Origin: Candidatus Hydrothermarchaeales archaeon
GTDB taxonomy: Archaea > Hydrothermarchaeota > Hydrothermarchaeia > Hydrothermarchaeales > JAZGAD01
Length of the DNA stretch: 64,000 bases
NCBI GenBank assembly: GCA_036444275.1
Contig: JAZGAD010000014.1
Span: forward strand, 1-64,000
Reading direction: 5' to 3'
In this document: in pieces, positions 13,007 through 62,334 of the stretch
Layout: each line of letters starts with the position of its first letter
Position numbering within the stretch: the stretch's first letter is position 1
Notes under the pieces: generated by a model
Databases searched by the model: none
What the model was told of the DNA's origin: nothing
Seen by the model: the letters and a program-made list of their open reading frames with translations, nothing else
Made by a program: the position numbers and the translations under genes

Positions 13007-13507
13007 TTATTTTGAGAATATATCTCTCCTATCTCGCATGGCGAGCATCCTCTCGTCGTCGCTCGCCTTAACCAGGAATTTGAAGAGGCACTTAGGAGCA
13101 CCCTTGGAGATGACCTCTGGTAATAACAATTCGCCCTCTGGAAAGGCCCCCGTAAAGAGGCTCTTCCAGGTGCCATAGTGGAAGCTGCAAGTAGCATACC
13201 TGTCTACCTTCATTATATCCTCAAAGGGGCACGTGTTAACCTTCATTATCACGCTATCTGCGCTTGCCTCGAATTCTACATCAGTACCCAGCTCTGAATG
13301 GACACCCTGCTTAACAGCTTCTATCCATCCCTCTATGGTCCATTCCTCTGGCTTACGTACCTTATCTTTGAAGATCTTTTGCCCTGCCTTCTCAGCGCTA
13401 ATCCTCGCGATCGTAGGATTCCTGGTCAGCTTCCAAGAGGTCTCAACTGATCTTATGAACCATCTACCATAGAGGTAGACCTTGAAGTCGTTGTTTGTTT
13501 TATCCAT
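13007..13507 (-). CDS. V4R-like / methanogen-output-domain-like small ligand-binding protein
   Basis: VNTCPF...TCSFHYG...VISKGAPKCLF three-Cys pattern typical of V4R-fold proteins. Confidence 0.65.
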   Translation of the reverse strand: MDKTNNDFKVYLYGRWFIRSVETSWKLTRNPTIARISAEKAGQKIFKDKVRKPEEWTIEGWIEAVKQGVHSELGTDVEFEASADSVIMKVNTCPFEDIMKVDRYATCSFHYGTWKSLFTGAFPEGELLLPEVISKGAPKCLFKFLVKASDDERMLAMRDRRDIFSK

Positions 13508-13550
13508 CTCTATCCTATCCTTTAGGGCTTAGCGACTATTCTTCATTCCC

Positions 13551-13910
13551 TCATAATAGTCCTTTTACCTTTTCACTGGCTTTCTCCATCTCCACCAATA
13601 TCAATCCAAGTCCAGCCTCAGGTGTCGTCATAACCACGAGCAGCGCCTTCGAGCCAGCACCCGTCGCTATCACCTTACCCTCTTTAGATTCAACTATCAC
13701 CCTATCTGGCACGCCCTTCTTCAACTCTGATATAGCGGTCTCTGCAGCACCGAGCATAGTAGCGCTCATAGCTGCAAAAGTCTCACCATGAATCCCACTC
13801 GGAATGTCCGATGCCATAAGCAAGCCATCCCTAGATACAACTGCACTAGCCTCAATATCCCCAACCCTCTTAATCTGCGCTAGAACCTTCTCCAAATCTT
13901 CTTTTAACAT
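13551..13910 (-). CDS. Roadblock/LC7 (MglB-like) domain protein
   Basis: IEASAVVSRDGLLMAS...FAAMSATMLGAAE...VIVES...LGLILVEM. Confidence 0.92.
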   Translation of the reverse strand: MLKEDLEKVLAQIKRVGDIEASAVVSRDGLLMASDIPSGIHGETFAAMSATMLGAAETAISELKKGVPDRVIVESKEGKVIATGAGSKALLVVMTTPEAGLGLILVEMEKASEKVKGLL

Positions 13911-13914
13911 TTTT

Positions 13915-15078
13915 TCAGGCCCCAACAACCATATTGACTATAGTTTCAAAGGCTTCTACTACACCTTTCTTTTCAGTAGCAACAACTGGAAGTATCTTTA
14001 TCTCTTCCCCTATCTGCATCTTCTCCCTTATCTCCTTTTCGCTGAGGGCTCCTTCTAAGTCCTGTTTATTCGCAACTATTATATAAGGCAATCCATGCAC
14101 TTTGATCAACTCCAGCATAGCCTTCGCCCTGGCGAAATCCTGGGGCTTCGTTGAGTCTATGACGACGAAGACCCCATACGCCTCTTTGCCCAGGAGCTTG
14201 AGAAGGGGATCGAAGCGCTCCTGCCCAGGTGTCCCGAAGAGGTCGACTGAGAAGCCCATGTGGTCTACGTGCCCATGATCTAGGGCTACCGTTGTGCCCA
14301 GTCTATCCACGGATACTGCCCTAGTTGAAAGTGAATGTATAAATGTCGACTTGCCTGCGTTGAAGGGCCCGGTAACAAGCAGCTTGGGTATGTATACTTT
14401 CACACCCCCTGGCTTGGTAACCCTGAAGAGGACGTATCTCTTTTCAGCTTCACACCAGTTCGCCCTTATTATGCCATAGTACTGTCCAAATAGAATTCTT
14501 CCGCCTACGCCTCCAATATCAACGACACAGTCGAAGAGTTCCTCCTTAATCTTCCTGAGGATCTCTTCAGGATAGGGCCAGGCTGTAAAGTTGTAGATGC
14601 CGATACTGTCGTTTAACATGATGTTCTTATTCCACTCCTTCAAGTATTCATCGATATTCTCTCCGCAGAGGTCCACGATCTGGGAGAGTGACCCATGGAC
14701 AACTCCGCCGTGTTCGAAGTCATCGATGGCCCTGCTGATAGTGTCGTTTAGGTTTTGAATATCGCCTGGGTCATCCACTACATATCGTTCATCGGATTGA
14801 ATCCCCATTAACCCAGAGAAGGCGTCTAGTATGGCAAACCTATCCCCATATCTCTCGATGTCCCAACCATAGTCCATGAACTCCTCCCTGACCATCGAGG
14901 GCTCTATAGTAGTGGTTATGAAGAGCCCCTTACCCCCCTGTTCTAAGTGGCTGATGAGGGTCTGCATCCCGAATACCTCGCCGGCGACACCAGGCTGTGT
15001 GTAGTAACATATGCTCTTTCCCTTTGGGATCCCTCCATGTAAATAATCGTCCAATTTCGGTATCCCTGTCTTTATCAT
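13915..15078 (-). CDS. Fusion of a degenerate KaiC/RAD55-like domain and an MglA-like small GTPase
   Basis: N-terminal IKTGIPKLDDYLHGGIPKG; C-terminal G1 GPFNAGKST, G2 TTVALDHG, G3 FGTPGQERF, G4 ANKQD. Confidence 0.88.
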   Translation of the reverse strand: MIKTGIPKLDDYLHGGIPKGKSICYYTQPGVAGEVFGMQTLISHLEQGGKGLFITTTIEPSMVREEFMDYGWDIERYGDRFAILDAFSGLMGIQSDERYVVDDPGDIQNLNDTISRAIDDFEHGGVVHGSLSQIVDLCGENIDEYLKEWNKNIMLNDSIGIYNFTAWPYPEEILRKIKEELFDCVVDIGGVGGRILFGQYYGIIRANWCEAEKRYVLFRVTKPGGVKVYIPKLLVTGPFNAGKSTFIHSLSTRAVSVDRLGTTVALDHGHVDHMGFSVDLFGTPGQERFDPLLKLLGKEAYGVFVVIDSTKPQDFARAKAMLELIKVHGLPYIIVANKQDLEGALSEKEIREKMQIGEEIKILPVVATEKKGVVEAFETIVNMVVGA

Positions 15079-15785
15079 TCTCGCACCTCCATGATTCTAC
15101 CCTCTTGGATTGCGTACTTGAAAATTGGATTTGATGCAGAGAGGCCGGAGACCCTTATATACTTGCCTCCGCTTTCTTGCTTCATTTCTATTAATCCTTG
15201 GCAGAGCTGTCTAACAGTGGCTAAAACTTCTGGGCCATGCATCCCCTCCTCCAAGGTGTAGATACCGACGCATCCAGCTGCCCTTATCCTGCCGCTGAAG
15301 ACATAGAGGAACCGGTATAGAATTTGGATGTTAGAGAACATGAGTAGGTTGGAGAGCGACTCAACAACCACAACCGTCTCTTTCAGGAGCAGTTCCTTGT
15401 AAAACCTTGTTAGAAATCGATTCAGGCCTATAGAGATGCCATTGAGGTCGACAGCGCTCGAAACCTGTACGACGTTTGAAGCGTGCTTTCCAGTGCTAAA
15501 ACCTAGGGTTCGTGATATGGAGTCTATGATCCCGATTCTATCTTCATGAGGCCTCATATCCATCCCATGGCTTGCAAACCAATCCTTAAGCTGGTCGGCA
15601 GTATCCTTTGTGGTGATATATATGCCGCCGCCGCCGCCCTTTAGGACCTCGTAGAAGAGATTCCTGACTAAAACGCCTTTCCCTACCATAGGGGGGCCGG
15701 AGAGCAGAATGTTCGATCTAGGAGCTACAGCTCCAATTTGCCTATCTAGGAAATCTATTCCAAAAGAATAGGTCACATTATACAC
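15075..15785 (-). CDS. KaiC/RAD55-family RecA-like ATPase (atypical Walker motifs)
   Basis: FGIDFLDRQIG, LLSGPPMVGKG, VVVESLS, QLCQGLIEM; GTG start; stop overlaps the next ATG (ATGA). Confidence 0.85.
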   Translation of the reverse strand: MYNVTYSFGIDFLDRQIGAVAPRSNILLSGPPMVGKGVLVRNLFYEVLKGGGGGIYITTKDTADQLKDWFASHGMDMRPHEDRIGIIDSISRTLGFSTGKHASNVVQVSSAVDLNGISIGLNRFLTRFYKELLLKETVVVVESLSNLLMFSNIQILYRFLYVFSGRIRAAGCVGIYTLEEGMHGPEVLATVRQLCQGLIEMKQESGGKYIRVSGLSASNPIFKYAIQEGRIMEVRE

Positions 15786-15847: not shown

Positions 15848-16582
15848 TTATATGAAGACTTTCTCCTCTGGGAAGACGGTGATGCCATTGTCCTCGATGA
15901 TAAAAGGATGTGTCTCAAGGGAGTGCCTGCTTTGACGCATCTTCCGTACTGTTAGAGTCCTGACTACTCGTCCCTCAGCCAGTATCAAATCCATATGGAT
16001 AACGCCACGCAGTAGGAATTCCTCAACGCCGTATCGGCTTATCTTATTCGGTGCTAAGGTCTCAGTGGTCATGAGGGAGGTGCATCCCAGCTCAAGAAGG
16101 AGGGAGGAAAGCCTGAATATTGTTTTCCTTGTCTCTATGGCATTTTCCAGGCCGAATTCCAACGCCGGGAGTGTATCTACTACAACGCGTTGAGCATCGA
16201 TCCTCCCGACAGCAGCGGAGATAAGAGTCATCAACTTCTCTATGTCGTATCCAGGGCCTATGGCAAAGCCCTTGTTCACCTTTATAGGAATCTTTATGGT
16301 AGAGGCATCTATGATCATCAACTTCCTCTCGTCCTCAAGCTTTTGAAAGTCCCAGCCGAACTCTGCCATTTCAGCCTTTAGGTCCTGGGGCCTCTCCTCT
16401 AGGGAGACGAGTACTCCGTTCTCGTCGTATTGGGTTGCTCCGTTGTACAGGAACTGGGAGGAAAGAATGCTCTTCCCAGTGCCAGATTCTCCTGCTATCA
16501 ATATGCTTGAGCCCTTTGGAATACCTCCATTAAGGATTTCATCCAGTCCGGGTATTCCGGTCTTAGTCTTAGTTTTAGCCAT
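15848..16582 (-). CDS. Single-domain KaiC-like ATPase
   Basis: TGIPGLDEILNGGIP, Walker A GESGTGKS, SLEE, Walker B RVVVDT, EEFLLRGVI, VRKMR. ATG 16582 preferred as start. Confidence 0.92.
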   Translation of the reverse strand: MAKTKTKTGIPGLDEILNGGIPKGSSILIAGESGTGKSILSSQFLYNGATQYDENGVLVSLEERPQDLKAEMAEFGWDFQKLEDERKLMIIDASTIKIPIKVNKGFAIGPGYDIEKLMTLISAAVGRIDAQRVVVDTLPALEFGLENAIETRKTIFRLSSLLLELGCTSLMTTETLAPNKISRYGVEEFLLRGVIHMDLILAEGRVVRTLTVRKMRQSRHSLETHPFIIEDNGITVFPEEKVFI

Positions 16583-16731
16583 CTCCCAGCCTTCTCTATT
16601 GAATTGACCCTTATTATATATTATATGTATGTGTTTATTTTCTGTTTCATTTCCCCTTCCCCTTCCCATTTCATTTCTAATGCGGACTATTTTGACTGTG
16701 ACTGGTATCTTCTCTGAAAACTTCCTCAGCT

Positions 16732-19700
16732 CTATGGTAGCTTGGCGTCTATTTGGGATAGTCTCTCCTCGTTCTTCTTCGTGAGTTCCTCATATGGCTT
16801 GTCAGAGATTATACCCTTATCATGTTGCATTTTAATAGTCTCCAGCAGCTTCTTTATCTGCTCTCGCTTCCTCCTCAACTCATCCTCCCGTGAGAGCCTG
16901 ACTCTCTTCTCTGGCATTGCCCTTGCCCCACGCTTCCTCTCCCTCGATAGGACTTCTTTAGTTCCTATTAATGTTTCCAGTCTATGGGACCATCGCAGTG
17001 CGAAGTAGCCTACCATCAGCGCTAGTATGAATAAGGCGGCGATGATGCCGAAGAAGACCTCTCTTGGTATCAAAGGAGGCACTATGATAGTAGGTGTAGG
17101 GGGAAGAGTTGGCGGTAGTGTAGTTGGCGGTAGTGTAGTTGGCGGTAGTGTAGTTGGTGGAGTTATCACCGTCACTTCTACCATGGCTTTATCTATAAGG
17201 GAGCGGGCATCCCTCAGGTAAGTTCTGGCGCTCTCAAGAGCGGCGAGTGCATCATAGTATCTCTTATCTCTTATAAGATCCTCGGCTCTTCTTATCTCGC
17301 TTGTAGCATCTCTCAAGATGGTTAAAGCCTTGGTTACATTCTTACCTTCCTGAAGTGCTATGAAAGTCTTGTCTTCTACTTCAACTAAGTTTTCCTTGAC
17401 TTTATCTATCTCCCATTCCAGAAGATCCTCTATAGATTCGAATACTTTCAGGGTCAGGGATTTCTCGTCTGACGCTTCAATGGACGTGGAGATAAAGGTG
17501 ATGTTGAATTCCTGGGGGGTTATATTCTTAGGCACGTCGATCTCGATGACCTGAAGCAGGGTTTTCCCTTTAGCTAGAGTGTCTGCACTGCCCTTTACAA
17601 GCTGGAACCACGTAGCTGGTATCCCAATGAGTTCTGCCGAGACGTTATGTAGGAGTACGCCACCTGTGTTCTCAACTGTTACGGTTAGGTAGCCTGTTCC
17701 ACCTTTTTCTACGCTTATCTGAGACGGATAGAAGTCCGTTATGTTCAGTTGAGCTGGTGGTGCTGCCGGTGCTCCCGGTGCTCCCCCTGGGCCTCCTGGA
17801 GGGGCAGCAGCTTTTGCCTTTACCTCGAAGGTTGCACTTGCTGTGGCTGGAGGAGCGTTTGGGTCATAGATGACGCTGACATGCAACGTATAAATTCCGG
17901 GGGCAAGATCGATAGCTTTGTCGGTAGTCTTATTAAAGACATCAGGCACGCCGGTCTCCTTAACTGCCCTAGAGAATGAACTGTTGTATTTTTCTTCTCC
18001 AATGATTGTGTAACTAATTATAACATCTTCCTCGACGAACTCTCCCATGTTGGTCATATTTATGGTGAAGGTGAGATATTCTTCTTGGGCCACTGGATCC
18101 TTAATCCATTCAATGATCACATCGTAGGGCCCGGTTTTGAGTATCCTGAAGGCCTCCATGTCCCAAGACCCAGCCGACCCCTCCTTTGCCTCCAATACCG
18201 TTAGATACGAGCCGGTGAGTACTGAGCTCGAATCGACCTTCTCGGAATAGGTGTAGAAGCCAACTTGGGTGATATTGAAATCTGATTTCGAGAGGTCCCG
18301 CCACAGGTCAGGTGAATATCCTTCAGTGCGATAGATCTTTACATTTATCGCGTCCGAGTCTATACCGTCTCCTGTGGCTGGATTTATCGTTATTACCGAG
18401 ACGGTCATTATCTTGTCGAGGTACACGACCGATGGTATCATCACCTCTGCGAAGAGATCCACAGACACCACGAAGATATCGATGTCGTTGGCTTCATCAA
18501 GACCATAAGTCGCTTTTGCTGTCACCAAATATGCCCCAGTGGAGGCATTTGTATCCAGGGTGAAGTTGGCTTTGTATATGAGTCCTACGTCTAGGGTGGC
18601 ATTGATGTTCTCTTGGATAATGCTACCATTGGGGGCTGTGACGTTTATGCTCACGTTTGCACCGGGCAATAAGATGCCGTATCCATCCTTGACCACGGCA
18701 TATATTGTCACAGTTTCTCCGGGTTGATGCACATCGCCCGCATCTACATCTAGATACAGAGGTAATCCGGTAATTTCCTTGACAACTTTGAAGGAGTTGG
18801 ATGCTGAGGCATTCACCCATTTGTCCGCTTTATCATCGTAGTAGGTGACATTGGCAACCCAGTTATAATCTCCCAGAGTTGCCTTTGAATCCAGCTGGAA
18901 GGTTGGATCTGGTCTAGCTTTTCCATCAGCGCTTGTCGTTGCAGAGAAGTTCAGTATCAGCCAGTTATATGGGTCAATGAGCTGCAGGTTCACATCAGCG
19001 TCTCCAACAGGTTGGTCATTCGCATCACCGATATAAATTTTGAAGCTCCCAGTGTCGCCCTGCTCATAGGTATCAGCGAGGGTATAGATAGTGAGCTCGA
19101 GCTTTGCATAAACCGCGAATTTGCTCTCGTTTGTTCCCCAGCCGGTGGCGTTGTCGTTGGCATAGACTGTAACAGTATAGTTGCCTCTGAGCGAGGTGTT
19201 CGTTACATTGACGGCCCAGCTTGAGGAGCCTCCTAGTATGTTGGCGGTTATATTACTGAGTTCAAGTAGTTCGGATGTGTTGTCAGGCCGCGTTATGGTT
19301 GCCGTGACGTTTGTGATAAGATTCGAAGCCCTATCAGTGACGTTGACGATTATCATGGCACTGCGTTTCTGCTCGACGTATTGCGAGAGATACACTATTT
19401 GCACCGACGGCCCCAGGACTACCGTTATATTGGCTGGTATCCACTGGTAGTCTGGGATTGCATCTGCGTCGGTGGCATTAACTGTGTAGTTTGCGGTGTA
19501 CGTATTATCCACCGCGGCATTCGAGGTGTTGTAGTTAATCTGGAACCTGTATGCAGAAGTCTTGTTTACTGTAAAGTTGGTCTTATTCGCTAGAGTGAAG
19601 TTGCCAGATGCAGGGTTAATGCTTATGTTGAAGGATATGTTAACGTTCCCGGTGTTGTTTATCTCTACCTCGCATATATTGCCAGTGGCGTTCACCAGCA

Positions 19701-22260
19701 CCGTTTTGGAGCATGATTCGAGAATCTTCATATTCCAGTTCCTGGAGGTGGGCACCGTTATGTTCAAAGTAAGGTTATCCCATCCGCCGTTGACGGAGCT
19801 CACGTTTATTGTGCCGTTGTATTCCCCAGGTGGATAGCCCTCCGGCACACTTACATTGACAGAGATATTCGTCCAATTGCCGGCGTTTACGTAGGCAGTG
19901 AAGTTCGGGTAAAAGCTGACGGTGAAGTTGTCGCATACCTCACCGGAGCCGGAGATGCAGCTTGCAGTGACATTTTCGATTCGATAGTTACCAGTGGAGT
20001 TTGCAGTGAAGTTTCCTATCAACCCCTCGCTTCCCTCTACAACGGTTCCATCCAGCTGGGTCTCGAGTACCTCCAGAATTGGTTGTCTGACTATCTCTAT
20101 TACTGAAGGCAAATCTGTAGTAGAATTCGGAGGTGCATCATAGTTCGCCCAGTTCACGGTTGCATTTATCGTGTAGTTCCCAGCCGGCGTTCCAGCTAGC
20201 ACGGTTATATTGAAGTAGCTCACCCTGAATTGGTCCTTTTCTAGGTTATTAAGTAGGAAGGGGAAGGTGACATTGGCTTTGAAGGTTGATGGGAGCGATA
20301 GGGTTATATTAGGCGAGTAGGCGGTGCCATTTCTGATGTTGGACACATTCGTCATCATCAGGAAGCTCTGGTTGTCGCGTTGCGTCACGTTGTAGACTCT
20401 AACGGTGTCATTTGTGAGATTTATCTTGAGGGTGGTGTTAGTAGCTATTATGGTCCTGAAGTAGTCCTCTCCGTAGCCGGTGTTGTTGTATTTCGAGGCA
20501 TTGCAGGCAAGGATCCAGGGGTTATATACTATGGAGGGAGCTGTGAAGTTCACCGCATAGGTGCCATCATCGTTATCGGTTATGTTTTCAACTACCTTCG
20601 GGTCGGTCCCATTAGTATAGTTGCATGTTACGTTGGCGTTCGCTATCCATGTGGTGTTTATGTAGTTCTGAACTGATACGTTAGCCTTCACTAGGCCGTC
20701 TATGAGGACCACCTTGGAGGAAGGTTGTATTATCGAGACAGAAACGCTGTATCTGTCGGTGAGATTGAAGGTGGTGGAACTCAGGTTCAAGAGGTAGCCG
20801 TATTTGTCATATACCCTTATGGTGAGATTCCAGACACCGGTTTGGTTGGCGAGGCCGAAGGTGTAGTTAGCGGTATAGTTGCCGTTCCCTTGGTAGTAAA
20901 GGGGTAAGACTATGTCATCGCTAGGATCTGCAGGGGTGCCCATGTCCAAGGTGGCGTTTGCAGAGGCATTAAGAGTGTGGCTATCATTCGTGACTATGCC
21001 AGTTATGTTAACAGTTTCATTTAGGTTGTAGACGGGGTATTCGGTCTGGGCTTCTACGATGACCTGCCATGCATCTGGTGGACCGCGGGTTGTGATGACA
21101 TCCTCGTAGAGCCTGTCTTTTAGCTCCTCGACTGAGGCGTGAGCCAATGTATCGGTTGATTTGTTGTTGAAAGAGACGACGGCGGTCGCAGAAACTGAGT
21201 CTACACTAAACCCGTTAAACCATATGTATATCCCTTTTAGTCCGAGTCCTACCTCATACTTATTCCCCGGCGTTCCACTTTCATTTAGATCTATCACTCC
21301 TAGACCCAGATTCGAAGTAGGATTGTATGCGGAGGCATAATATTCAGACGGAACACTTCGAAATTCAACCGTCCCAAAACCTCTAACTGTATCTAACGCA
21401 GGGGCGGAGTCAGAGGACGCTCTAGTCTCACTACTACCGATCTTCGTGAGGTTGTGTTCGATCTTGATCCAAGGATTATTTTCATAAAAGGTATACCTCT
21501 TCTTCATTGCGTATTCGCCAGTTGATGTTGTTGTACCCCATATTTTCTCGTCTCCAATTTGCTCAACGATTTTCCTGATTGAACCATTAACGACTAGCGT
21601 ATAATTGTTCCCGAAGTCATACCAATAATAAGTGACAGCACCATCACTATACTTGATGTACTCCAGAGTATCTTGGTCGGATGGAATGTCAAATATCAGA
21701 TTTCCGTCCCTAAAGCTCGCATAGTATATACCCGAGGTATAATTCACGCTGCGATTAGTATCCACCCTAATCTCCAAGAGGGAATTATTCACCCAGAATT
21801 CGTCGCTACTATTTGTATAGGTCAGCTGTGTGTTGTAGGTGGGAGCTTCTTTAGCTCCGTTTTCTATGGTGTCGAAATAGATGTAGTAGGAATACCTCGT
21901 GTTCTCGGGCCTCGTCCCGTTTAGAAGCCAGACAACCTCGCCTACCGCATTAGATGTGGGTGAATAACCACTTCCCTGGTCGAATTGCGAGGGAATCTCG
22001 TACATGAGTTCCCCGGTGGATAAGTTGTATTCGAGGACCCTCGTCGAGTTCTCATCAAAGGTCCCGGTTACATTGAGTGCGGTAAAGTTTATCCAGTGCT
22101 CAATAGGCCAATCCGTCCTATTGTACGAAGAAGTATTCACTGTTACGTTAACGCGGTAATGCCAAGAGTTATTCCACCATTTAACAGGTATAGCACTAGC
22201 TACCCCTACGTTTAGTACCCAGACTAATATACCTACTACTAATAGGGCTTTTCTATTCAC
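16732..22260 (-). CDS. Large membrane-anchored surface glycoprotein (1,842 aa)
   Basis: Signal peptide (MNRKALLVVGILVWVLNVGVASA), WWNNSWHYR start of the mature part, many beta-rich segments with dense N-x-S/T sequons, Pro/Thr linkers, TM helix (VFFGIIAALFILALMVGYFAL), basic cytoplasmic helical tail. Confidence 0.88.
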   Translation of the reverse strand: MNRKALLVVGILVWVLNVGVASAIPVKWWNNSWHYRVNVTVNTSSYNRTDWPIEHWINFTALNVTGTFDENSTRVLEYNLSTGELMYEIPSQFDQGSGYSPTSNAVGEVVWLLNGTRPENTRYSYYIYFDTIENGAKEAPTYNTQLTYTNSSDEFWVNNSLLEIRVDTNRSVNYTSGIYYASFRDGNLIFDIPSDQDTLEYIKYSDGAVTYYWYDFGNNYTLVVNGSIRKIVEQIGDEKIWGTTTSTGEYAMKKRYTFYENNPWIKIEHNLTKIGSSETRASSDSAPALDTVRGFGTVEFRSVPSEYYASAYNPTSNLGLGVIDLNESGTPGNKYEVGLGLKGIYIWFNGFSVDSVSATAVVSFNNKSTDTLAHASVEELKDRLYEDVITTRGPPDAWQVIVEAQTEYPVYNLNETVNITGIVTNDSHTLNASANATLDMGTPADPSDDIVLPLYYQGNGNYTANYTFGLANQTGVWNLTIRVYDKYGYLLNLSSTTFNLTDRYSVSVSIIQPSSKVVLIDGLVKANVSVQNYINTTWIANANVTCNYTNGTDPKVVENITDNDDGTYAVNFTAPSIVYNPWILACNASKYNNTGYGEDYFRTIIATNTTLKINLTNDTVRVYNVTQRDNQSFLMMTNVSNIRNGTAYSPNITLSLPSTFKANVTFPFLLNNLEKDQFRVSYFNITVLAGTPAGNYTINATVNWANYDAPPNSTTDLPSVIEIVRQPILEVLETQLDGTVVEGSEGLIGNFTANSTGNYRIENVTASCISGSGEVCDNFTVSFYPNFTAYVNAGNWTNISVNVSVPEGYPPGEYNGTINVSSVNGGWDNLTLNITVPTSRNWNMKILESCSKTVLVNATGNICEVEINNTGNVNISFNISINPASGNFTLANKTNFTVNKTSAYRFQINYNTSNAAVDNTYTANYTVNATDADAIPDYQWIPANITVVLGPSVQIVYLSQYVEQKRSAMIIVNVTDRASNLITNVTATITRPDNTSELLELSNITANILGGSSSWAVNVTNTSLRGNYTVTVYANDNATGWGTNESKFAVYAKLELTIYTLADTYEQGDTGSFKIYIGDANDQPVGDADVNLQLIDPYNWLILNFSATTSADGKARPDPTFQLDSKATLGDYNWVANVTYYDDKADKWVNASASNSFKVVKEITGLPLYLDVDAGDVHQPGETVTIYAVVKDGYGILLPGANVSINVTAPNGSIIQENINATLDVGLIYKANFTLDTNASTGAYLVTAKATYGLDEANDIDIFVVSVDLFAEVMIPSVVYLDKIMTVSVITINPATGDGIDSDAINVKIYRTEGYSPDLWRDLSKSDFNITQVGFYTYSEKVDSSSVLTGSYLTVLEAKEGSAGSWDMEAFRILKTGPYDVIIEWIKDPVAQEEYLTFTINMTNMGEFVEEDVIISYTIIGEEKYNSSFSRAVKETGVPDVFNKTTDKAIDLAPGIYTLHVSVIYDPNAPPATASATFEVKAKAAAPPGGPGGAPGAPAAPPAQLNITDFYPSQISVEKGGTGYLTVTVENTGGVLLHNVSAELIGIPATWFQLVKGSADTLAKGKTLLQVIEIDVPKNITPQEFNITFISTSIEASDEKSLTLKVFESIEDLLEWEIDKVKENLVEVEDKTFIALQEGKNVTKALTILRDATSEIRRAEDLIRDKRYYDALAALESARTYLRDARSLIDKAMVEVTVITPPTTLPPTTLPPTTLPPTLPPTPTIIVPPLIPREVFFGIIAALFILALMVGYFALRWSHRLETLIGTKEVLSRERKRGARAMPEKRVRLSREDELRRKREQIKKLLETIKMQHDKGIISDKPYEELTKKNEERLSQIDAKLP
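17107..17157. repeat. 15-nt tandem repeat (3+ copies) encoding a (T)TLPP stalk
   Basis: AGTTGGCGGTAGTGT x3 plus a partial copy; encodes PPTTLPPTTLPPTTLPP just before the TM helix. Confidence 0.9.
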
Positions 22261-22338: not shown

Positions 22339-22347
22339 GGACGGTTC

Positions 22348-55300: not shown

Positions 55301-58300
55301 CAAATTCTATGACAACGGCACCACTAATCTCGCCCCGAATGGTAGCTTCAGCAATAACGTGACTGAAGGATACTCCCGCACCTTCTACGCAAGGTTCTAT
55401 GACCTTGAGATAAGTGCGTTTGGCCATGTCATAAAATTCGAGAACCTGAATGTGAGTGACCACTTGAACGATCCAATACGCCTCGACGAGTTCAAGGAGG
55501 GCGATATCTCAGAGAACAACTTGAATCTACCTCTCGGAAGAAGGCTTCTGAAAGGCATTGGGGTTAAGACCAACTTTACGAATCTGACTACGGAGAAGGT
55601 GACTTTGATCCTCAACTACTCCGGTACAGTGCCAAATGATGAGGACTCGATAAAGATATACAGGTGCCCTGGCTCAAGCTGGACCTTCGAGCCAGATAGC
55701 GCGAGGGGATGCACAAACTGGGAGGAACTCGGAGGTACCCCATACAAGCCGGCGCAGACCATACAATTTGAGGTTGAAAACTTCTCAGCCTACGCTATCA
55801 CCGAGGAAAAGCCAACAGTGCCTCAGATAACTCTTACCGCTCCAACGGGCGGCGAGACATGGGCCGACAATCAGAGCATTACCTATACCTACTATGATCC
55901 AAACGGCAACAACCTGGATGTCTACATATGGTATAGCAACGACTCCGGTGCGACATGGAACTATATATATAATAAGACTTACACCGACACTGGTACTCAG
56001 AAGACAGGTTCCTATTCTTGGGATACTACAAGCAGACCAGATGGAAGCTACCTGATCAACATCACCGTCACAGATACAGATGGAATGACGAATGAAGACA
56101 TCTCTGGAGCTTCCTTCACCATAGACAATATCGACGATGATCCACCTACGGTAACCCTCACAAAGGAGCCCTCGGATTCGACGTGTTCCCAAGACCTATT
56201 CTTTGAGGGAAAGGCAATCGATGCGAGATCAAACATCAGCGCAGTAGAATACCGGGTGGACGGCGGCAGTTGGATAAACGCTACTCCAATAGATGGTGCC
56301 TTCGATTCCCTAGAAGAAGAGTTCAACTTCACCACAGGTACCCTATCCTTCGAGAGCCATGCCATCGAGATCAGGGCTAACGACAGTTCTGGCACATCTG
56401 GGTATTCAACACCCCTCTACAAACCCAAAGAGGTTACGAGGGCCTGCCAGGAGATAAAAATACCCTCCGGCGGAGGTGGCGGTGGAGGTGGCGGTGGAGG
56501 CATCTCCCCCACCTGCGGTAACGGCATTTGCCAGCCAGGTGAGAACAGTGAGAACTGCCCACTGGACTGCGCACCCACAAACGCGACGAACGCATCAGTG
56601 ATCATGCAGAGGGAGATAGAGCGCCTACGTGAACAGCTCGAAGAGATCAGGCAGACGATAAGTGATACCGCGAATGAAACCGCTGAGAGGGTAAGGACGA
56701 TGCCTACGATTTCTCCCTTCACGATACAGACGAATCTCGCTGAGGTAGAGCTTCATCCAGGAGAAGAGAAGTGGTATTCCATCTGGATAAGCAACCACTT
56801 GAGCAGGGACCAGAAGGCAAGGCTCTCAGCCATGGGCGTTGGAGCGCAGTTCATCGAGATGTACGTAGATAGTGTCAAACTCTTCACCGAGGCGACTGTC
56901 ACCCTAAAGCCGGAGAGCACGCAGCACATAAAGGTCAGGGTCTATTCCCTGCCGACAACGATACCAAGCATATACACTGCCGATATCCTTCTGAGGGTAA
57001 ACGGCCAGAACCATACCATACCTGTGACCATAACTATAACGCCTGAGAGAGAAGCCCTGCTCGATGTCAAGGTAGAGGCGCTGACCAAGAGGCTCACTCC
57101 AGGGAAGCTCATCAAATATCACGTCTCGCTTTACAATCTCGGCTTCAAGAAGAAGTTCGATGTGCACATGGTATACAAGATAAAGGACGTCGAAACAGAG
57201 AAACTCATCGACTGGTACGAAGAGGAGCTAGCCCTAGAGACGACGCTCTCCTTCGTGAAAACATATCCAATGGAGAACCTCACCCTCTCAATCGGCAGTT
57301 ACTTCATTGAGATAGAGGCGATATACGAGAAAAATAGGACCGCTTCTGCAGCTGATATATTCGAGATAGTGCAGCCGTTCTGGAATAGAACGAGGAGGCT
57401 GGGTGTTCTAGCTCTCATCCTGCTCATTACTGCCAGCGCAGCTGGATATAGAGCTAGAAAATGGTACTTAGCCCAGAAACTCGCGAAGGCCAGATACCTG
57501 TTCCCAGTCGCGGAGGATAAGCTCCCCAAGGGCGAGCTCTGGCTCGGCAAGATAGCTGAGACAGACATCAAGGCAACCTTCGATATGGACGACCTCATGG
57601 TGCACTGTATCACTGCTGGTGCAACCGGCTCTGGAAAGAGCGTCTCGGCCATGGTAATAGTTGAGGAGGTATTGAAGCAGAATATACCGGTAATAGTCTT
57701 CGATCCAACCGCGCAGTGGACAGGCTTCGTTAGGCCGTGTAGAGCAGAAAAGATGCTTGCTTTCTATCCCAACTTTGGGTTGAAGGAGACTGACGCTAGG
57801 CCCTTCAAGGGTATGATCTTCGAAGTGACTGATCCCTTCGAGATGGCTGATATAGACTACCGCAAGTACATGAATCCAGGCGAGGTAACAATATTCGCCT
57901 TGGACAAGCTCGAGCCGCAGGAGTTCGACAAGGCGGTAAAGAACATCATTGACGCGCTTTTCAAGATATCCTGGGAGGAGTCGCCTCACCTCAAGGTCCT
58001 TATAGTGATGGACGAGGTCCATAGGCTGCTTGAGAAATACCTGTCGATGGGCGGCATAGTCTCGGAACTGGAGGGCTATAAGTCCATCGAAAAGGCATGC
58101 AGAGAGTTCAGGAAGTGGGGTATAGGAATAATCATGGCCTCCCAGATATTGTCTGATTTCAAGGAGACACTTAGAGGAAACGTCATGACTGAGATACAGC
58201 TCTTTACAAAGGCAGAGGAGGACCGGCAGAGGGTAGCTGACAAGTACGGCGCAGAGTACGCCCAGAGGATAACCAAACAGGAGGTGGGCGTTGCACTCGT

Positions 58301-58589: not shown

Positions 58590-58610
58590 TTAAAGAAACA
58601 GGTGCGTGCT

Positions 58611-60266
58611 ATGGCTGACGAAGAGAGGGACCCGACATTACAGGAGATCTTACTCAAGCTTGAGAAGATAGATGGAAAGCTGGAGATAGTGGATAGATTC
58701 AGAGAAACCACTGACGAGAGATCCTCCAGGCTGTCTGAGCAGATAGGCGAACTGCGCACCATGCTCCTGGAGAGGGAGCGGACCTCGCGGAACATGGAGA
58801 TGGACTTCGAGAAGATAAAAGTCCTGGTGAAAGAACTAGATCCAATGGCCCTTGTAAAGGAGTCAGAAAAGAAAGAGAAGAAGATCATCGAGAACAAGGT
58901 CAAGGTAGAGAAACTTGAGAACATGATCGCAAAGCTCGGTGAGGAGGTCGGAGCTTTCAGAGATGTGATGGAGAAGATAAAGAGCTTTGAGAACCTCGTG
59001 GAGATGGCCAAGGATGTGAAGAAGAAGATCTCAGATATAGAGGACAGTAAGAGATACACAGATAGGCTTGCTGGGAAGGTGGAGAGCATCTTCTCAGAGC
59101 TGAACGAGAAGATCCTAGAGCTGGAGGAGTACAAGGGGAAGATAACGAAGGCAGACGAGCTGACCAAGGAGCTTGTGAAATCGACGGACAGGCTCGAATT
59201 AAAGCTCGGCGACGTAGCAGAAAGGACAGATAGGCTTCCCACAGTTGTTGAATTCGAGGACAAGATCGAGGGTCTCGCTGCCTCGATGCGTTTCCTGACA
59301 AAGAAGATCAGAATGCAGGAGCTGGATGAGGTAAGCAGCGACCTGGGCAGAAGGATGAAGGAACTCAGCACAGGGATGCCTGAGCTGGAGAGGGTGAGGG
59401 AGCTTGCAGGGGAGAGGAGGAGAATCATGGAGCTCATGATGAGTGTTGATGAGGACTACAAAAAAGAATTAATTTCCAAGGAGAGCTACGAAGAGGTGAA
59501 GCGGAAGAACGAGGAGATGCTCAAAGGCATCAAAGAGTCTATAAAGACAGATCTGGGCCACCTGGTGAGCTCTCTAGAAGTGGAAGTCGAGCAGGAACTG
59601 GAGAAGTTTGCTGAGACTATGCCCACCGAGGAAGAATTGGAGGCAGAGATAGAGGTGCCTGAGCCTCTGATTCCAGCTCCAGAGGAATTCAAAGCAGAAG
59701 CACCTGCGTTTGAGGCACCGCCACTAGAAATAGGGGCAGAAAAAGGAGAATTTGAGAAAGCCTTTGAGAGGCAGGCAGAGGCTTTCCCAGAATTTAAACC
59801 GATTCCGCCGCCCGCTGGAGTAGAGCCCGAACCGAAAGTAGTTAAGCCAGAGCTTAAGGTGGAGCCTAGGGTGGAGCCTGTGAAGCCGAGGATAGAACCA
59901 AAAGTAGAGCCTAGGATAGAGCCGAAGGTAGAAGCGAGAGTAGTTAAACCAGAGCCTCCGACGCCTGTGAAAGTACCGGTTGCCGCAGAGCAAGCGGTAA
60001 AGCCAGAAGCAGTAACTGTTAAGGCAGAAGCACCTACCCCAAAACCATCGTTGGCGCTTGAAAAATTAGATGCCGCTTCTATCGAGAATAAATTGAATGT
60101 AATAGAGACCGAGAGGGGGGTGGTTCAGAACCTCCTTGATGGTCTTTCCGCTGAATTGGATTATAGAAAACGAGAGCAAATGGAAAAGAGATATGGGGAT
60201 AGGCTAGAGAAGATATCTCAGACTCAAGCTGAGTTAAAGAAGCTGAAAGAGAGGGCAGCGCCCTGA
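58611..60266 (+). CDS. Coiled-coil protein with Pro/Glu/Lys-rich linker
   Basis: Long E/K-rich heptad region, (V/I)EP(K/R) repeats, C-terminal helical hairpin; starts 21 nt after the giant ORF stop (alternative GTG start at 58602). Confidence 0.85.
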   Translation: MADEERDPTLQEILLKLEKIDGKLEIVDRFRETTDERSSRLSEQIGELRTMLLERERTSRNMEMDFEKIKVLVKELDPMALVKESEKKEKKIIENKVKVEKLENMIAKLGEEVGAFRDVMEKIKSFENLVEMAKDVKKKISDIEDSKRYTDRLAGKVESIFSELNEKILELEEYKGKITKADELTKELVKSTDRLELKLGDVAERTDRLPTVVEFEDKIEGLAASMRFLTKKIRMQELDEVSSDLGRRMKELSTGMPELERVRELAGERRRIMELMMSVDEDYKKELISKESYEEVKRKNEEMLKGIKESIKTDLGHLVSSLEVEVEQELEKFAETMPTEEELEAEIEVPEPLIPAPEEFKAEAPAFEAPPLEIGAEKGEFEKAFERQAEAFPEFKPIPPPAGVEPEPKVVKPELKVEPRVEPVKPRIEPKVEPRIEPKVEARVVKPEPPTPVKVPVAAEQAVKPEAVTVKAEAPTPKPSLALEKLDAASIENKLNVIETERGVVQNLLDGLSAELDYRKREQMEKRYGDRLEKISQTQAELKKLKERAAP

Positions 60267-60276
60267 TGTGATTAAA

Positions 60277-62334
60277 ATGGTTCGACTAAAGGAAAAGATC
60301 AGATCTGTCATCCGCCGCAAGGAAAAGGACTATGGGGAACCATATATCGAGGAGGACTACGGCCTTCCACCCGGATTCGAGGATGATGTAGGGATCGAGG
60401 AGTCGGAAGGCGAATATGTGCTCTTAAAGATCTTTGAAAGAGAGAGCCCTGATATTGGATTCTCATACGCTGCAAACAAGATCGAGGAGTTAAAAAAGGA
60501 TATATCCGCTCTTAAGGCAGAAGCGGATTCACTATCAGGGGTAAACGCCACGCTGAGGGTGGATCTGGAGAGGCTTCTCCCCCTAAAGGGGGCGCTGGAC
60601 GAGCTGAGAAAAGACATAGAAGAGAAGGACGATGTAATCTTTGCGAAGAACCTAGACATAAAGAAAGTGAATAAAGCCCTCGATCGCATGCAGGTAGAAG
60701 TAAGCGAACTAAGGAGGGAGTTGAAAGATAGGGAGCGGTTGCTGGAGAGGGGTAATAAACGGCTGAAGCAGATGGAGGATACGACTCGGCTGGATGAGTT
60801 GGAGGCAGAGCTCAGCGAGCTCAGGGTGACTGTTACGGAGCAGAAGGATACCCTCGCTATAAAGAGTTCTCAGGCAGAGGAATTCAAGCAGATGGCAGCT
60901 GCCCAAGATGAGGAGCTGAACACCATAAAGGCTACTTGGTGGCAGCAGGGCAAGGAATTAAAGAAGATGAAGATAGAGCTGGAGGAGAAGACGGGCATCC
61001 TATCCTCGAAGGAGGGCTTGATAGAGGAGTTGACAAAGAAAACTACGTCCCTCAACGAGGTATTGGAGAGTATGCGGCAAGATGTGGCTGATAGAGAAAA
61101 GAGGCTCTCTACGTTTGGGGACCACATATCCGATGCAGAGAACCAGCAGAAGAGGCTGGAGAAAGAGCTTCGAGAAAAGGAGGAGGTTATAGGTAAAATC
61201 ACTAACAATTTAGGCAGAGCTGAGTCTCGGGTAGATGATTTGAGGAGCCAGCTAGAGGAGAGGGATTTGCAGCTGCAAGGGACTACGAAGAGGGTCAGAG
61301 AGCTTGAGGATACGGATAGATTCGAGGATTTAGAGGCCGAGCTTAGCAAGTTGAAGGTGACTGTTGAGGGGCAGAAGGATACCCTATCTTTAAAGACTTC
61401 GGAGGTTGAAGACTTGAAGCAGGCTGCAGCTGCCCAGGAGGACGAGCTGAGCACCATAAAGGCTACTTGGTGGCAGCAGGGCAAGGAATCAAAGAAGATG
61501 AAGATAGAGCTGGAGGAAAAGACGAGTATCCTCTCTTCAAAGGAGGCATTGGTAGAAGAGTTGAAGAAGAAATCTGCGTCCCTCAGCGAGCTCTTGGAGA
61601 GTATGAAGAGGGATGTAACTAACAAAGAGGACAGGGTAGAGGAATACGAGGATAGGATCGGCCGTCTACACGGTAAAATAGGCGCCTTAAGGTCAGCTAT
61701 AGGTATCGAAGAAGGGCAAAGAAAGAGCTTGAGTAAGAGATTATTTGGTGGTAAGAAGGAACTCACATTGGAGGACGAGTTAGACCTCCTGACAGAGGAT
61801 ATAACCGTAAATCAGGGCAGGGTCGTCGGCTATGACAAGAAGGTATCAGACTTAGAGATCCAGGTAGAGAGACAGAAAAAAGCCTTGGAGGAAAAGGAGG
61901 GGACCATCTCTGCAAAGACCAGCGAGATAGAAAAACTCTTGGATGTTTCCTCCTCCCTGAAGCAGGAATTAAGAGAATTAAGGGAGAAGACACCTGTGGA
62001 AGGTACCAAAGAGGTAGACGCGAAGGAGGCGGCCTCCCTAAGGCTAGCAAAATTGAAAAGAACAGTTGAGGGCGGACCCGAGGAAATAATCGAGGAAAAA
62101 CCTGTAATGGGGGAAAGGGAAAGACTAGAGGAAGCTGAAAAGGAAGCGGAGAAGTTAAAGATCAAAAAAGAATTAAGAATGCTGGAAATTGAGAAGAAAT
62201 CGACCGAAAAATTATTGGAGAGGCTTCCAACTGCTAGTTTTGATGAAACAGAACGCAGTATGAGGGAAGCGAGCTATACGGAGAAGCTGACGAATATATC
62301 CCGCAGTATCGAGGAATTGAGAGAAAGGCTGTGA
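60277..62334 (+). CDS. Long coiled-coil protein with an internal 177-aa repeat
   Basis: Heptad-rich throughout; TIKATWWQQGKE.KKMKIELEEKT occurs twice, 531 nt apart; no Walker A, so not a full SMC protein. Confidence 0.85.
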   Translation: MVRLKEKIRSVIRRKEKDYGEPYIEEDYGLPPGFEDDVGIEESEGEYVLLKIFERESPDIGFSYAANKIEELKKDISALKAEADSLSGVNATLRVDLERLLPLKGALDELRKDIEEKDDVIFAKNLDIKKVNKALDRMQVEVSELRRELKDRERLLERGNKRLKQMEDTTRLDELEAELSELRVTVTEQKDTLAIKSSQAEEFKQMAAAQDEELNTIKATWWQQGKELKKMKIELEEKTGILSSKEGLIEELTKKTTSLNEVLESMRQDVADREKRLSTFGDHISDAENQQKRLEKELREKEEVIGKITNNLGRAESRVDDLRSQLEERDLQLQGTTKRVRELEDTDRFEDLEAELSKLKVTVEGQKDTLSLKTSEVEDLKQAAAAQEDELSTIKATWWQQGKESKKMKIELEEKTSILSSKEALVEELKKKSASLSELLESMKRDVTNKEDRVEEYEDRIGRLHGKIGALRSAIGIEEGQRKSLSKRLFGGKKELTLEDELDLLTEDITVNQGRVVGYDKKVSDLEIQVERQKKALEEKEGTISAKTSEIEKLLDVSSSLKQELRELREKTPVEGTKEVDAKEAASLRLAKLKRTVEGGPEEIIEEKPVMGERERLEEAEKEAEKLKIKKELRMLEIEKKSTEKLLERLPTASFDETERSMREASYTEKLTNISRSIEELRERL

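Follow-up and report, generated by a model that had tools for sequence, protein, structure and literature searches.

SPEARE proteins and a giant surface protein of Hydrothermarchaeales

The closest described counterparts of the gene considered here are the SPEARE proteins, which the accessible text of the papers cited below treats as a hallmark of nanohaloarchaeal and other DPANN symbionts and as a tool for host attachment, invasion or effector injection. According to the accessible part of Hamm 2019 (PMC6642349), SPEARE proteins reach 8,553 aa, are mostly extracytoplasmic, and have a transmembrane (TM) helix near the C-terminus followed by a conserved intracellular part; a laminin-G domain was present in all SPEARE ectodomains examined, the protein was seen by proteomics, and similar sequences were noted in Woesearchaeota, Aenigmarchaeota, Micrarchaeota and Altiarchaeales. 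Members of 12,127 aa (metagenome-assembled genome (MAG) KA27) and of 8,146 and 3,105 aa (KA24) are given in the consulted part of PMC8470020. For the cytoplasmic P-loop ATPase, an initial assignment to type III restriction helicases gave way to a VirB4/TraG-like one; in Reva 2023 (PMC10266531), ~75 immunoglobulin (Ig)-like domains precede an intracellular VirB4/TraG-like ATPase, to which a coiled coil is joined, and laminin-G is not treated as defining. The roles put forward are host adhesion or invasion, and a 'straw' resembling a type IV secretion system (T4SS). Here we analysed a 64,000-nt stretch of DNA (the window; positions 1 to 64,000 of contig JAZGAD010000014.1, assembly GCA_036444275.1) from a Candidatus Hydrothermarchaeales archaeon. 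The window is contig C14 of genome G000 in our numbering, and the genome measures 1.49 Mb and is 81% complete. An earlier note, made from the sequence alone, had read positions 13007-62334 as a candidate for a single undescribed envelope machine of 49 kb built around a giant surface protein-ATPase. The giant gene and its parts are as follows.

25353-58589 (+): predicted giant SPEARE-family gene, 11,078 aa, an open reading frame (ORF) with Pfam matches to DUF87/HerA and weak matches to Ig-like, MG2 and NEW3 domains
25377-25433 (+): hydrophobic stretch at the N-terminus, aa 9-27, read as a signal peptide or an anchor (Kyte-Doolittle score 2.41)
28050-51602 (+): ~23 copies of a ~335-aa super-repeat, aa ~900-8750 (self-comparison of 250-aa chunks)
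56469-56567 (+): 11-Gly run and short Cys-rich motif, aa 10373-10405, a likely hinge (from the sequence)
56640-57398 (+): membrane-proximal ectodomain module, aa ~10430-10682, with matches in 80/80 loci (alignment A1)
57399-57452 (+): single TM helix, aa 10683-10700 (hydrophobicity; drop in sequons)
57453-58382 (+): cytoplasmic P-loop ATPase of the HerA/FtsK superfamily (Pfam DUF87, E 4e-9)
57618-57641 (+): Walker A, GATGSGKS, aa 10756
57999-58022 (+): Walker B, aa 10883
58383-58586 (+): C-terminal helical tail of three helices, residues 310-377 of the AlphaFold2 (AF2) model, with a consensus in alignment A3

The ectodomain of ~10,650 aa (aa 28-10682) contains 655 N-X-S/T sequons against 188 expected from its composition, and is predicted from these counts to be heavily N-glycosylated. 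Sequon density is 6.15 per 100 aa before the TM helix and 0 in the 378-aa cytoplasmic part, a drop that supports a topology with the ectodomain outside the cell and the ATPase in the cytoplasm. Each 250-aa chunk between aa 1001 and 8501 matches 13-31 other places in the protein at 20-52% identity, with a spacing of ~335 aa, and each super-repeat probably comprises three beta-sandwich domains. Pfam returned weak matches only for the ectodomain (Big_1, Big_7, Ig-like, MG2, PITM and NEW3); applied to the whole protein and to 27 overlapping 500-aa pieces, it recognised no enzyme or pore domain in the ectodomain and no laminin-G, protease-like, toxin-like or beta-propeller domain. No family member is without the membrane-proximal module, and even the short forms of 650-730 aa have it. 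Two further details of the ectodomain may be recorded here: blocks at ~30432-31352 and 32103-33128 (aa ~1694-2000 and ~2251-2592) are 81-82% identical and represent a recent internal duplication, and the Cys-rich stalk motif beside the 11-residue poly-Gly has the pattern CGNGxC...C..DC. Contigs from four other public sequencing runs break or show loose ends in this poly-Gly/Cys-rich region, at 56468-56501, with breaks at 56468 and 56500.

HerA, FtsK/SpoIIIE, TraB and VirD4-type ATPases are membrane-associated hexameric translocases. The AF2 model of the cytoplasmic part (pLDDT 91.8) was matched by Foldseek most closely to the Sulfolobus HerA hexameric translocase 4d2i (E 6e-14, TMq 0.54), with further matches to bacterial HerA, the packaging ATPase B204 of STIV, the coupling protein TcpA and FtsK; sequence identity in these fold matches is 12-20%. 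HerA was also the best match when the PDB was searched with the ATPase sequence. The Pfam matches of this region are partial (DUF87/HerA, ResIII, FtsK and TrwB), and all NCBIfam matches lie far under their cut-offs (CedD 47.7 vs 600 bits, TraD 25.7 vs 366, CedB 19.9 vs 700, TraC 15 vs 567), those of the HerA models included (31.4 vs 800 and 16.8 vs 970 bits). Walker A, Walker B and an EFRKWG motif are invariant in the 49 sequences of alignment A3, and the cytoplasmic 378 aa share 50-64% identity with 48 relatives across phyla, against 20-50% in the ectodomain. Because short forms keep the motor and hardly any fibre, and because the motor is far better conserved than the ectodomain, the function of the motor appears to be central to the family. 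By analogy with its hexameric relatives, it seems fairly probable that the ATPase domains assemble into a ring.

The window protein shares with the published SPEARE proteins its very great length, an N-terminal signal, a mostly extracellular chain, a C-terminal TM helix, a conserved cytoplasmic P-loop ATPase and C-terminal helices. Over query residues 4-646, the C-terminal module of the window protein has 42% identity to a frame on a KA24 contig that measures 3,105 aa, like the KA24 protein named as SPEARE in PMC8470020 (locus L070; handles beginning with G, C, L and f are our own for genomes, contigs, loci and families). The architecture and this sequence match together place the window protein in the SPEARE family, and we conclude from sequence comparison that it is a predicted member of that family from outside the DPANN archaea, the founding Nha. 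antarcticus protein having been compared by description only. That its host belongs to Hydrothermarchaeales, whereas the published proteins come from DPANN symbionts, is a feature of the organism and not of the protein. Contrary to the earlier note, then, the giant gene is not undescribed; it is of the known SPEARE kind and a new, non-DPANN member of it.

Distribution and phylogeny of the family

With the C-terminal 649 aa as query, we found 403 relatives of 356-1,136 aa, 427 of 1,137-3,245 aa and 27 of 5,500-7,883 aa, annotated solely as DUF87, DUF853 or HerA-like. A profile search gave 418 representative clusters at E<=1e-30, in which the ATPase is nearly always C-terminal, and at least 568 loci in species-representative genomes encode an ATPase relative. 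The sources are mostly Aenigmarchaeota, with others from Nanohaloarchaea, Woesearchaeota, Pacearchaeota, Parvarchaeota, Altiarchaeota and Nanopusillaceae, as well as Heimdallarchaeaceae, Thermococcus and Hydrothermarchaeaceae. Laminin-G domains (PF13385 or PF02210) do occur in other family members.

Within the best 80 of these at least 568 loci, which served as our locus sample, the shortest ATPase-bearing frame has 551 aa and the longest exceed 3,900 aa, and 23 are still open across the whole 10-kb upstream flank. The longest open frames that end in the ATPase measure 14,695 aa (G043:C1), 13,519 aa (G103:C2), 13,314 aa (G071:C2), 13,242 aa (G041:C1) and 12,056 aa (G042:C3), which are open lengths, so that proteins counted from their true starts may be shorter. 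The window protein was considered as the largest of its family, and this was rejected in view of frames of up to 14,695 aa. The five genomes with these frames are just 0.7-1.2 Mb in size, and a single gene may take up to ~5% of the genome.

A counterpart of similar length is a 10,835-aa orthologue on a 1.9-Mb contig of G005, a genome of the same order (37% identity over 6,302 aa). A second locus in G001, which is of the same family as the window's host (L018, on G001:C115), encodes two tandem paralogues of ~670 aa, each with the ectodomain module, the TM helix and the ATPase, followed by a CC1-like gene (see below); these short paralogues are 36-37% identical to the window protein and sit on long branches in the tree.

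In a quick maximum-likelihood (ML) tree, the window sequence groups with that of G001 (Shimodaira-Hasegawa-like approximate likelihood ratio test (SH-aLRT) 99), and G005 groups with G020 and two MAGs labelled Methanobacteriota (99); both groups fall into one unresolved polytomy with Aenigmatarchaeota. Neither this tree nor a neighbour-joining tree resolves whether the two Hydrothermarchaeales clades are sisters, and vertical descent and transfer are indistinguishable. Shared synteny and a CC2 gene specific to the order favour one acquisition within it, as far as gene order and sequence can indicate. A side case is the 3.4-kb contig L029, labelled Heimdallarchaeota, whose ATPase is sister to an Aenigmatarchaeota sequence (SH-aLRT 98) with very short branches. 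This placement points to possible mis-binning, and non-DPANN labels in the family need checking.

Conserved partners of the giant gene

Three other genes of the locus encode candidate partners.

58602-60266 (+): CC1, cytoplasmic coiled-coil protein; N-terminal ~220 aa conserved family-wide, hairpin motif at aa ~285-310 and a second, related one C-terminally
60268-62334 (+): CC2, second coiled-coil protein with an internal duplication; SMC/Rad50-type coiled-coil matches only
16732-22260 (-): S-like protein, 1,842 aa; signal peptide, predicted glycosylated MG2/NEW3 ectodomain, TM helix at aa ~1735 and a ~90-aa cytoplasmic tail with the hairpin motif (ORF, Pfam, hydrophobicity)

We examined these partners in three samples: the 80 loci above; 41 genomes of the window's kin, G000 included; and 81 genomes from the phylum of G041 (Aenigmatarchaeota; the DPANN sample). 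The genomes are related by kinship, and the co-occurrence counts therefore describe the data and amount to no statistical test. CC1 is the most constant neighbour. A homologue is present in 71/80 loci, in 57 of the 61 with at least 3 kb of downstream sequence and in 42 of the 46 with at least 8 kb, usually less than 100 nt from the giant gene, or separated from it by ~0.9 kb that encodes a small TM protein. The S-like protein is encoded as a separate ORF (E<1e-20) in 21/80 loci, including 19 of the 46 with long downstream flanks, and the usual order is SPEARE, CC1, S-like. Both features recur in the window, where CC1 lies beside the ATPase gene and the S-like protein, of a size class of ~1,900 aa, has a C-terminal TM helix and the hairpin tail.

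The genome samples give the same picture. In the DPANN sample, 41 of the 81 genomes have the ATPase, and CC1 occurs in 41/41 of these, with six further weak matches (E 1e-11 to 1e-18); all 28 strong S-like matches are in ATPase-positive genomes, and the 40 ATPase-negative genomes of this sample contain no strong CC1 or S-like match. Three other S-like matches in this sample comprise two inside a SPEARE frame and one partial domain in an ATPase-negative genome. Among the 41 kin genomes, strong ATPase matches are confined to families f1 and f5 and occur in G000, G001, G005 and G020; CC1 is found in these four and in G013 and G024, and the S-like protein in G000, G005, G013, G020 and G024. None of the three was found in the other 35 of the 41 kin genomes, the carriers belonging only to families f1 and f5. 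Completeness is 97% for G005, 80% for G001, 78% for G013, 62% for G024 and 86-99% for G003, G010, G025 and G038.

CC2 appears to be lineage-specific, with homologues in G001, G005 and G013 (all Hydrothermarchaeales) and in 1/80 loci, which is that of G005 itself. Giant gene, CC1 and CC2 stand in the same order in G001 as in the window, and the order in G005 is S-like, giant gene, CC1, CC2. The internal duplication of CC2 consists of two ~110-aa segments that share '...IKATWWQQGKE.KKMKIELEEKT...'.

The earlier note had proposed that proteins of both arms share a cytoplasmic helical-hairpin motif, and this is borne out for two of them. The cytoplasmic tail of the S-like protein aligns with CC1 aa 237-310 at 35% identity over 78 aa (BLAST, E 9e-10 in a small local database); the core of the motif is a hydrophobic helix, [QE][HY]xxG[LIM]ISxxxYxE[LI][KR] and a second helix. 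The tail of the giant protein itself had no significant BLAST match to the motif, and to that extent the claim does not hold. The motif is found in 21/21 aligned S-like tails, from Hydrothermarchaeales and DPANN loci, and in CC1 of the window, G001, G005, G013, L025 and L026. A resemblance to the SHOCT domain was not borne out by Pfam, as neither the S-like tail nor the CC1 region had a SHOCT match at E<=10, a search in which HMMER filters may hide very short weak matches.

The model of CC1 consists of three long helices (pLDDT 84.5, pTM 0.33), for which Foldseek gave no PDB match; the Atlas yielded only hypothetical archaeal clusters with scores <=0.89. A complex prediction with the ATPase (alignment A3) and the N-terminal region of CC1 (A2) gave an ipSAE of 0.00 in two runs with controls not folded, and speaks neither for nor against contact between the two.

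Several side features of these loci deserve mention. In several loci a small gene lies between the giant gene and CC1 (L015 ~52850-53665, in G005; L019 2197-2982; L024, L058 and L081); in G005 and G020 it encodes a free-standing membrane-proximal ectodomain module of ~265-270 aa with a TM helix and without the ATPase, and it is absent from the window. In 18/80 loci the SPEARE gene has a ~250-aa P-loop ATPase of ParA/MinD type no more than 10 kb away, often right after CC1 or the S-like gene (L027, L035, L042-L044, L059, L067, L074, L080, L082, L086, L087, L089, L091, L092 and L097 among them); none was found in the window or near the G005 locus. An InsA/DDE transposase fragment in G005 (L013 19339-19878, -), between KaiC and the giant gene, suggests local rearrangement at the divergent promoter region of that genome. 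Finally, downstream of CC2 in the window, a 130-aa ORF (62490-62882, -) contains two copies of a 'RLDSDALD.L..EIRQKLQ.KREEFKTL' unit.

Taken together, SPEARE, CC1 and the S-like protein seem to be a conserved set that travels together, with partners that are apparently undescribed: the set was not found in the texts on SPEARE that were searched. We found no paper on SPEARE in Hydrothermarchaeota, and none on CC1 or S-like proteins as its partners, and the searched text of a paper on that phylum (PMC6775978) mentions neither giant genes nor adhesion. That the giant protein belongs to the SPEARE family and that the three-part module is real appears, for both jointly, very likely.

The left arm and the composite nature of the locus

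The ORFs listed in the earlier note all exist at their coordinates, in two divergent arms, and the gaps of the rightward arm are indeed below 30 nt (29 nt between the winged helix-turn-helix (wHTH)-like ORF and the giant gene, 12 nt between the giant gene and CC1, 1 nt between CC1 and CC2). In the leftward arm, S-like, KaiC1, KaiC2, KaiC-GTPase, Roadblock and the last ORF share one strand, with gaps of at most 62 nt or overlaps. The inventory had missed an AbrB/MazE-PIN gene pair and the AT-rich spacer of ~0.9 kb that separates the two arms. The remaining features are listed here.

13007-13507 (-): 166-aa ORF, the 'V4R' of the earlier note; sub-threshold MetOD1 match (E 4.9e-4)
13551-13928 (-): Roadblock (Pfam)
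13915-15078 (-): N-half of KaiC fused to a Ras/Arf-like small GTPase (Pfam/NCBIfam)
15075-15785 (-): KaiC2, KaiC-like/DUF7504 (Pfam/NCBIfam)
13551-15785 (-): KaiC2/KaiC-GTPase/Roadblock trio, an independent unit; also in L110-L116; conserved without SPEARE
15848-16669 (-): KaiC1, 273 aa (KaiC, E 3e-76), 62 nt downstream of the S-like gene
22678-23400 (-): PAS protein with two TM helices (ORF and Pfam)
23529-24193 (+): AbrB/MazE-type antitoxin-like ORF (85 aa) overlapping a PIN-domain ORF (135 aa) (Pfam)
25084-25323 (+): wHTH-like ORF, 79 aa (HTH_24 E 2.6e-4, just under cut-off; weak ArsR and AsnC matches)

Comparison with relatives indicates that the KaiC2/KaiC-GTPase/Roadblock trio is a self-standing unit, separate from the SPEARE set. 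Full-length KaiC-GTPase orthologues of 46-77% identity are found in G001, G003, G010, G020, G025 and G038 and, as two copies, in G013, whereas G024 has fragments; full-length fusions are counted in at least 8 of the 40 other genomes searched. Wherever their flanks are visible, these contain a KaiC-like/DUF7504 gene and Roadblock with unrelated genes around, and in G003, G010, G013, G020, G025 and G038 the three genes stand at a distance from all SPEARE and S-like genes. In G003, G010, G025 and G038 the trio is present without SPEARE, CC1 or the S-like protein; G003, G010, G013, G025 and G038, along with G024 (fragments), have the trio and no strong SPEARE ATPase match. Conversely, G005 has SPEARE, CC1 and the S-like protein but no KaiC-GTPase fusion, and G020 carries the trio on one contig and the SPEARE gene on another. 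The genome G038 is related to the window's host at domain level only. In G001 the ribonucleotide reductases, the V4R-like ORF, Roadblock and KaiC-GTPase are arranged as in the window. Since the trio is kept without SPEARE and is missing from G005, and given the arrangement in G001, its adjacency to SPEARE is best regarded as a family-level accident of synteny. The trio looks like an uncharacterised GTPase/Roadblock signalling module with KaiC input, to judge from its domains.

The place of KaiC1 is less clear. A homologue lies near the trio in G010, KaiC genes adjoin S-like genes in G005 and L066, and in 18/80 loci the ParA/MinD-type ATPase takes a place similar to that of KaiC1; KaiC1 may either belong with the KaiC trio or fill a position in the SPEARE module that is reserved for a small P-loop ATPase. 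Neighbour counts in the 80 SPEARE loci are 3 for KaiC, 3 for PAS, 1 for wHTH and 1 for CC2. The wHTH-like ORF is not kept with the module and probably encodes a local regulator, and the AbrB/PIN pair is, from its predicted families, a toxin-antitoxin-type (VapBC-type) insert between the divergent arms.

Around the locus, three ribonucleotide reductase genes stand in a row at 5666-12374 (+), two for ATP-cone class I/II-type large subunits (722 and 699 aa) and one of anaerobic NrdD type (655 aa), and this trio of reductases adjoins the Roadblock/KaiC-GTPase genes in G001 too. Rfam and tRNA scans found no RNA genes in the window. ORFs of at least 100 aa were scanned with Pfam, most shorter ones being outside the scan, and among those scanned no pilin, archaellin, PilB/VirB11, relaxase, integrase or capsid family was found, in agreement with the earlier note.

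The neighbourhood comparison that the earlier note had proposed as a check, carried out over 80 loci and 41 + 81 genomes, thus divides its machine: co-occurrence with the ATPase and the shared motif sustain a multi-gene envelope system of the giant protein, CC1 and the S-like protein, which draws on both arms, and the KaiC trio, the PAS and wHTH proteins and the AbrB/PIN pair fall outside it. The proposed GTPase/KaiC switch finds no comparative support, the V4R label of the last ORF comes down to the sub-threshold MetOD1 match, and the 49 kb are a composite and not a single unit.

Proposed mechanism and alternative explanations

The explanation that we favour overall, with a probability of about 0.6, is a fibre-bearing SPEARE motor that acts with CC1 and the S-like protein in contact-dependent transfer or adhesion. 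The giant product would be a type-I membrane protein with a Sec-type signal. Its ATPases would form a ring under the membrane, as in HerA/FtsK relatives, and several ectodomains would make one long fibre. On the cytoplasmic side, CC1 and CC2 may serve as a scaffold, to which the shared motif would tie the S-like protein. The fibre might bind another cell or a surface, and ATP hydrolysis might then move a polymer, either DNA or protein, across at the point of contact, or remodel the fibre mechanically. We give macromolecule transport, as opposed to adhesion or mechanics only, somewhat less than an even chance. A bolder extension, in which SPEARE is no stand-alone adhesin of DPANN symbionts but the core of an archaea-wide envelope machine with a HerA-type ring motor, an obligatory CC1, a motif-coupled second surface protein and often a ParA/MinD- or KaiC-type ATPase, is conceivable yet doubtful. 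As to transfer, attachment or movement, the functions named in the earlier note, these are what we infer.

A number of observations weigh against this explanation or parts of it. The single TM helix per subunit provides no obvious channel, and no substrate-handling gene (relaxase, nuclease or effector) was recognised among the scanned ORFs of the window. As regards family membership, the laminin-G domain of Hamm 2019 is missing from the window protein, the tie to SPEARE runs through the KA24 protein, with the founding protein compared by description only (a genome scan with a nanohaloarchaeal query did not return Nha. antarcticus, Nanopetramus SG9 or SVXNc), and there is no counterpart of the VirB4-type gene that adjoins SPEARE in nanohaloarchaea: a search for PF03135, to which the control genomes responded, did not find it in G000 (81% complete), G001 (80%) or G005 (97%). 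As regards the partners, 13 of the 41 ATPase-positive genomes of the DPANN sample are without a strong S-like match, which may make the S-like protein dispensable. CC1 stands behind pyruvate-carboxylase genes in G013 and G024, not behind a giant gene, and is itself followed by CC2 in G013; the SPEARE ATPase was not found in either genome (78% and 62% complete). The hairpin motif is assigned to no family by Pfam; its strict pattern occurs in 1/71 CC1 homologues and a second pattern in 3 locus CC1s, and this rarity suggests that the motif link between the S-like protein and CC1 is lineage-limited.

Two alternatives concern the nature of the locus itself. It might be an artefact or foreign DNA, either a mis-assembled repeat array or a mis-binned DPANN contig, for the family is dominated by DPANN records and the contig L029 suggests that mis-binning happens in it. 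However, the window contig also holds housekeeping genes (a CCA-adding enzyme, the three ribonucleotide reductases and an AAA ATPase) and is syntenic with G001 on the reductase side, and its GC content of 0.46-0.55 along the giant gene compares with 0.45-0.48 in the flanks. DNA contigs of four other public runs cover parts of 52500-62400, a range for which no RNA data set was listed, and a contig of another public run bridges 56527-59915, from the end of the giant gene into CC1. The divergence of the repeats, the G005 orthologue on its 1.9-Mb contig and the bridging contig together indicate that the giant frame is not an assembly artefact, and we consider this explanation barely credible. The second alternative takes the whole 49 kb (13007-62334) as one apparatus, with the KaiC paralogues, KaiC-GTPase, Roadblock and the V4R-like protein as its switch. 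The closely spaced genes from S-like to the last ORF could indeed be co-transcribed, and the adjacency of KaiC and S-like genes recurs in G005 and L066. Against this, the trio has unrelated neighbours in five genomes with no strong SPEARE ATPase match (G003, G010, G013, G025 and G038), the 97% complete G005 has the SPEARE set and no fusion, G020 has the two on separate contigs, and KaiC-like genes occur in only 3/80 SPEARE loci, which makes a single apparatus very improbable.

The other two alternatives accept the module and differ on its work. The giant and S-like proteins might only be glycosylated adhesin or sheath fibres that attach to minerals, biofilm or cells, with the ATPase and coiled coils only to anchor, position or turn over the fibre and with no transport of any kind. 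An ectodomain in which beta-sandwich/Ig-like repeats alone were recognised, with no enzyme or pore domain, the single TM helix, the lack of recognised substrate genes and the ParA/MinD-like positioning ATPases at 18/80 loci are all consistent with adhesion only, as is the frequency of giant adhesins in bacteria, to go by the accessible literature. But the ATPase is the best-conserved part of the whole family (50-64% identity across phyla, vs 20-50% in the ectodomain), its catalytic motifs are all retained, and the short forms of 650-730 aa keep the motor and almost no fibre; these features point to a motor instead of adhesion as the core function, and leave adhesion alone unlikely. In the remaining alternative, the ATPase is the equivalent of VirB4/VirD4 in a T4SS- or conjugation-like 'straw' that injects effectors or DNA through a hollow fibre. 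This was proposed for SVXNc_0300 in the accessible text of Reva 2023 (PMC10266531), and PMC11001535, in the part consulted, reports cytoplasmic bridges of up to 11 nm in the consortium of SVXNc_0300. Weak matches of TraD, TraC, TrwB, VirB4 and CedB/CedD type and the presence of TcpA among the fold matches are in line with it. Yet the best sequence and fold matches are to HerA and not to VirB4 or VirD4, the NCBIfam matches stay far below cut-off (e.g., CedD 47.7 vs 600 bits), the VirB4 N-terminal domain (PF03135, CagE_TrbE_VirB) was not found in G000, G001 or G005, and no relaxase, pilin or mating-pore scaffold was found among the scanned ORFs of at least 100 aa, small ORFs and distant loci not having been searched. 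With HerA as nearest relative and no VirB4 N-terminal domain, a T4SS label is weakly founded here. Moreover, no Sec-exported beta-sandwich chain is known to form a conduit, and altogether we regard the straw as quite unlikely.

Implications

Since the family reaches into an order outside DPANN, with versions of more than 10,000 aa, either the view of SPEARE as a symbiont hallmark is too narrow, or Hydrothermarchaeales also live in close cell contact. The invariant part of the family is the motor with the membrane-proximal module, and not the fibre. CC1 and the S-like protein offer concrete candidate partners for the dissection of SPEARE, and the KaiC/GTPase/Roadblock 'switch', as a separate module, can be removed as a false lead. 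Should the archaea-wide machine of the bolder extension exist, it would represent a new class of cell-cell conduit or of DNA/protein transfer, found also in metabolically complete lineages such as Hydrothermarchaeales.

Comparison with known systems

With giant bacterial adhesins and giant genes (LapA, Embp, the giant genes of Omnitrophota), the window protein shares multi-thousand-residue arrays of beta-sandwich domains on the surface, and many of the bacterial examples come from small-genome or contact-dependent organisms. The adhesins differ in being secreted or wall-anchored, and the accessible sources describe no fused cytoplasmic motor ATPase in them. The left arm resembles GTPase and Roadblock/MglB modules and archaeal KaiC-like ATPases in its Ras/Arf-like GTPase, Roadblock/LC7 and KaiC domains, whereas it fuses the KaiC N-half to the GTPase, and the fusion is conserved with a DUF7504 KaiC-like protein and unlinked to SPEARE.

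HerA (Sulfolobus 4d2i; bacterial SIR2-HerA and DUF4297-HerA) shares the ATPase core with Walker A and B. In contrast to HerA, the window ATPase is without the N-terminal HAS-barrel domain and has a TM helix and the giant ectodomain in its place, and the scanned ORFs of the window include no recognised NurA, SIR2 or nuclease partner. FtsK/SpoIIIE/TraB, T4SS coupling proteins and Ced ATPases are polymer pumps at membranes. The window protein is akin to FtsK/SpoIIIE/TraB, TrwB, TcpA and CedB/'CedD' in its ATPase superfamily, N-terminal membrane anchor and cytoplasmic motor, and in the weak profile matches and the fold matches to TcpA and FtsK, and unlike them in its one TM helix (vs 2-4), its huge ectodomain and scores far below the cut-offs.

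The nearest system is SPEARE itself. The window protein differs from published members in its host, which belongs to Hydrothermarchaeales and not to DPANN, in that no laminin-G, protease-like, toxin-like or beta-propeller domain was detected in it, and in its downstream genes, which are coiled-coil where the published neighbour is a VirB4-type ATPase. Its 11,078 aa exceed the published nanohaloarchaeal lengths (up to 9,409 aa) and fall short of the 12,127-aa KA27 protein and the 14,695-aa G043 frame. It is the same as they are in being very long and mostly extracytoplasmic, with a signal peptide, tandem Ig-like domains, a C-terminal TM helix and a P-loop ATPase followed by a coiled coil.

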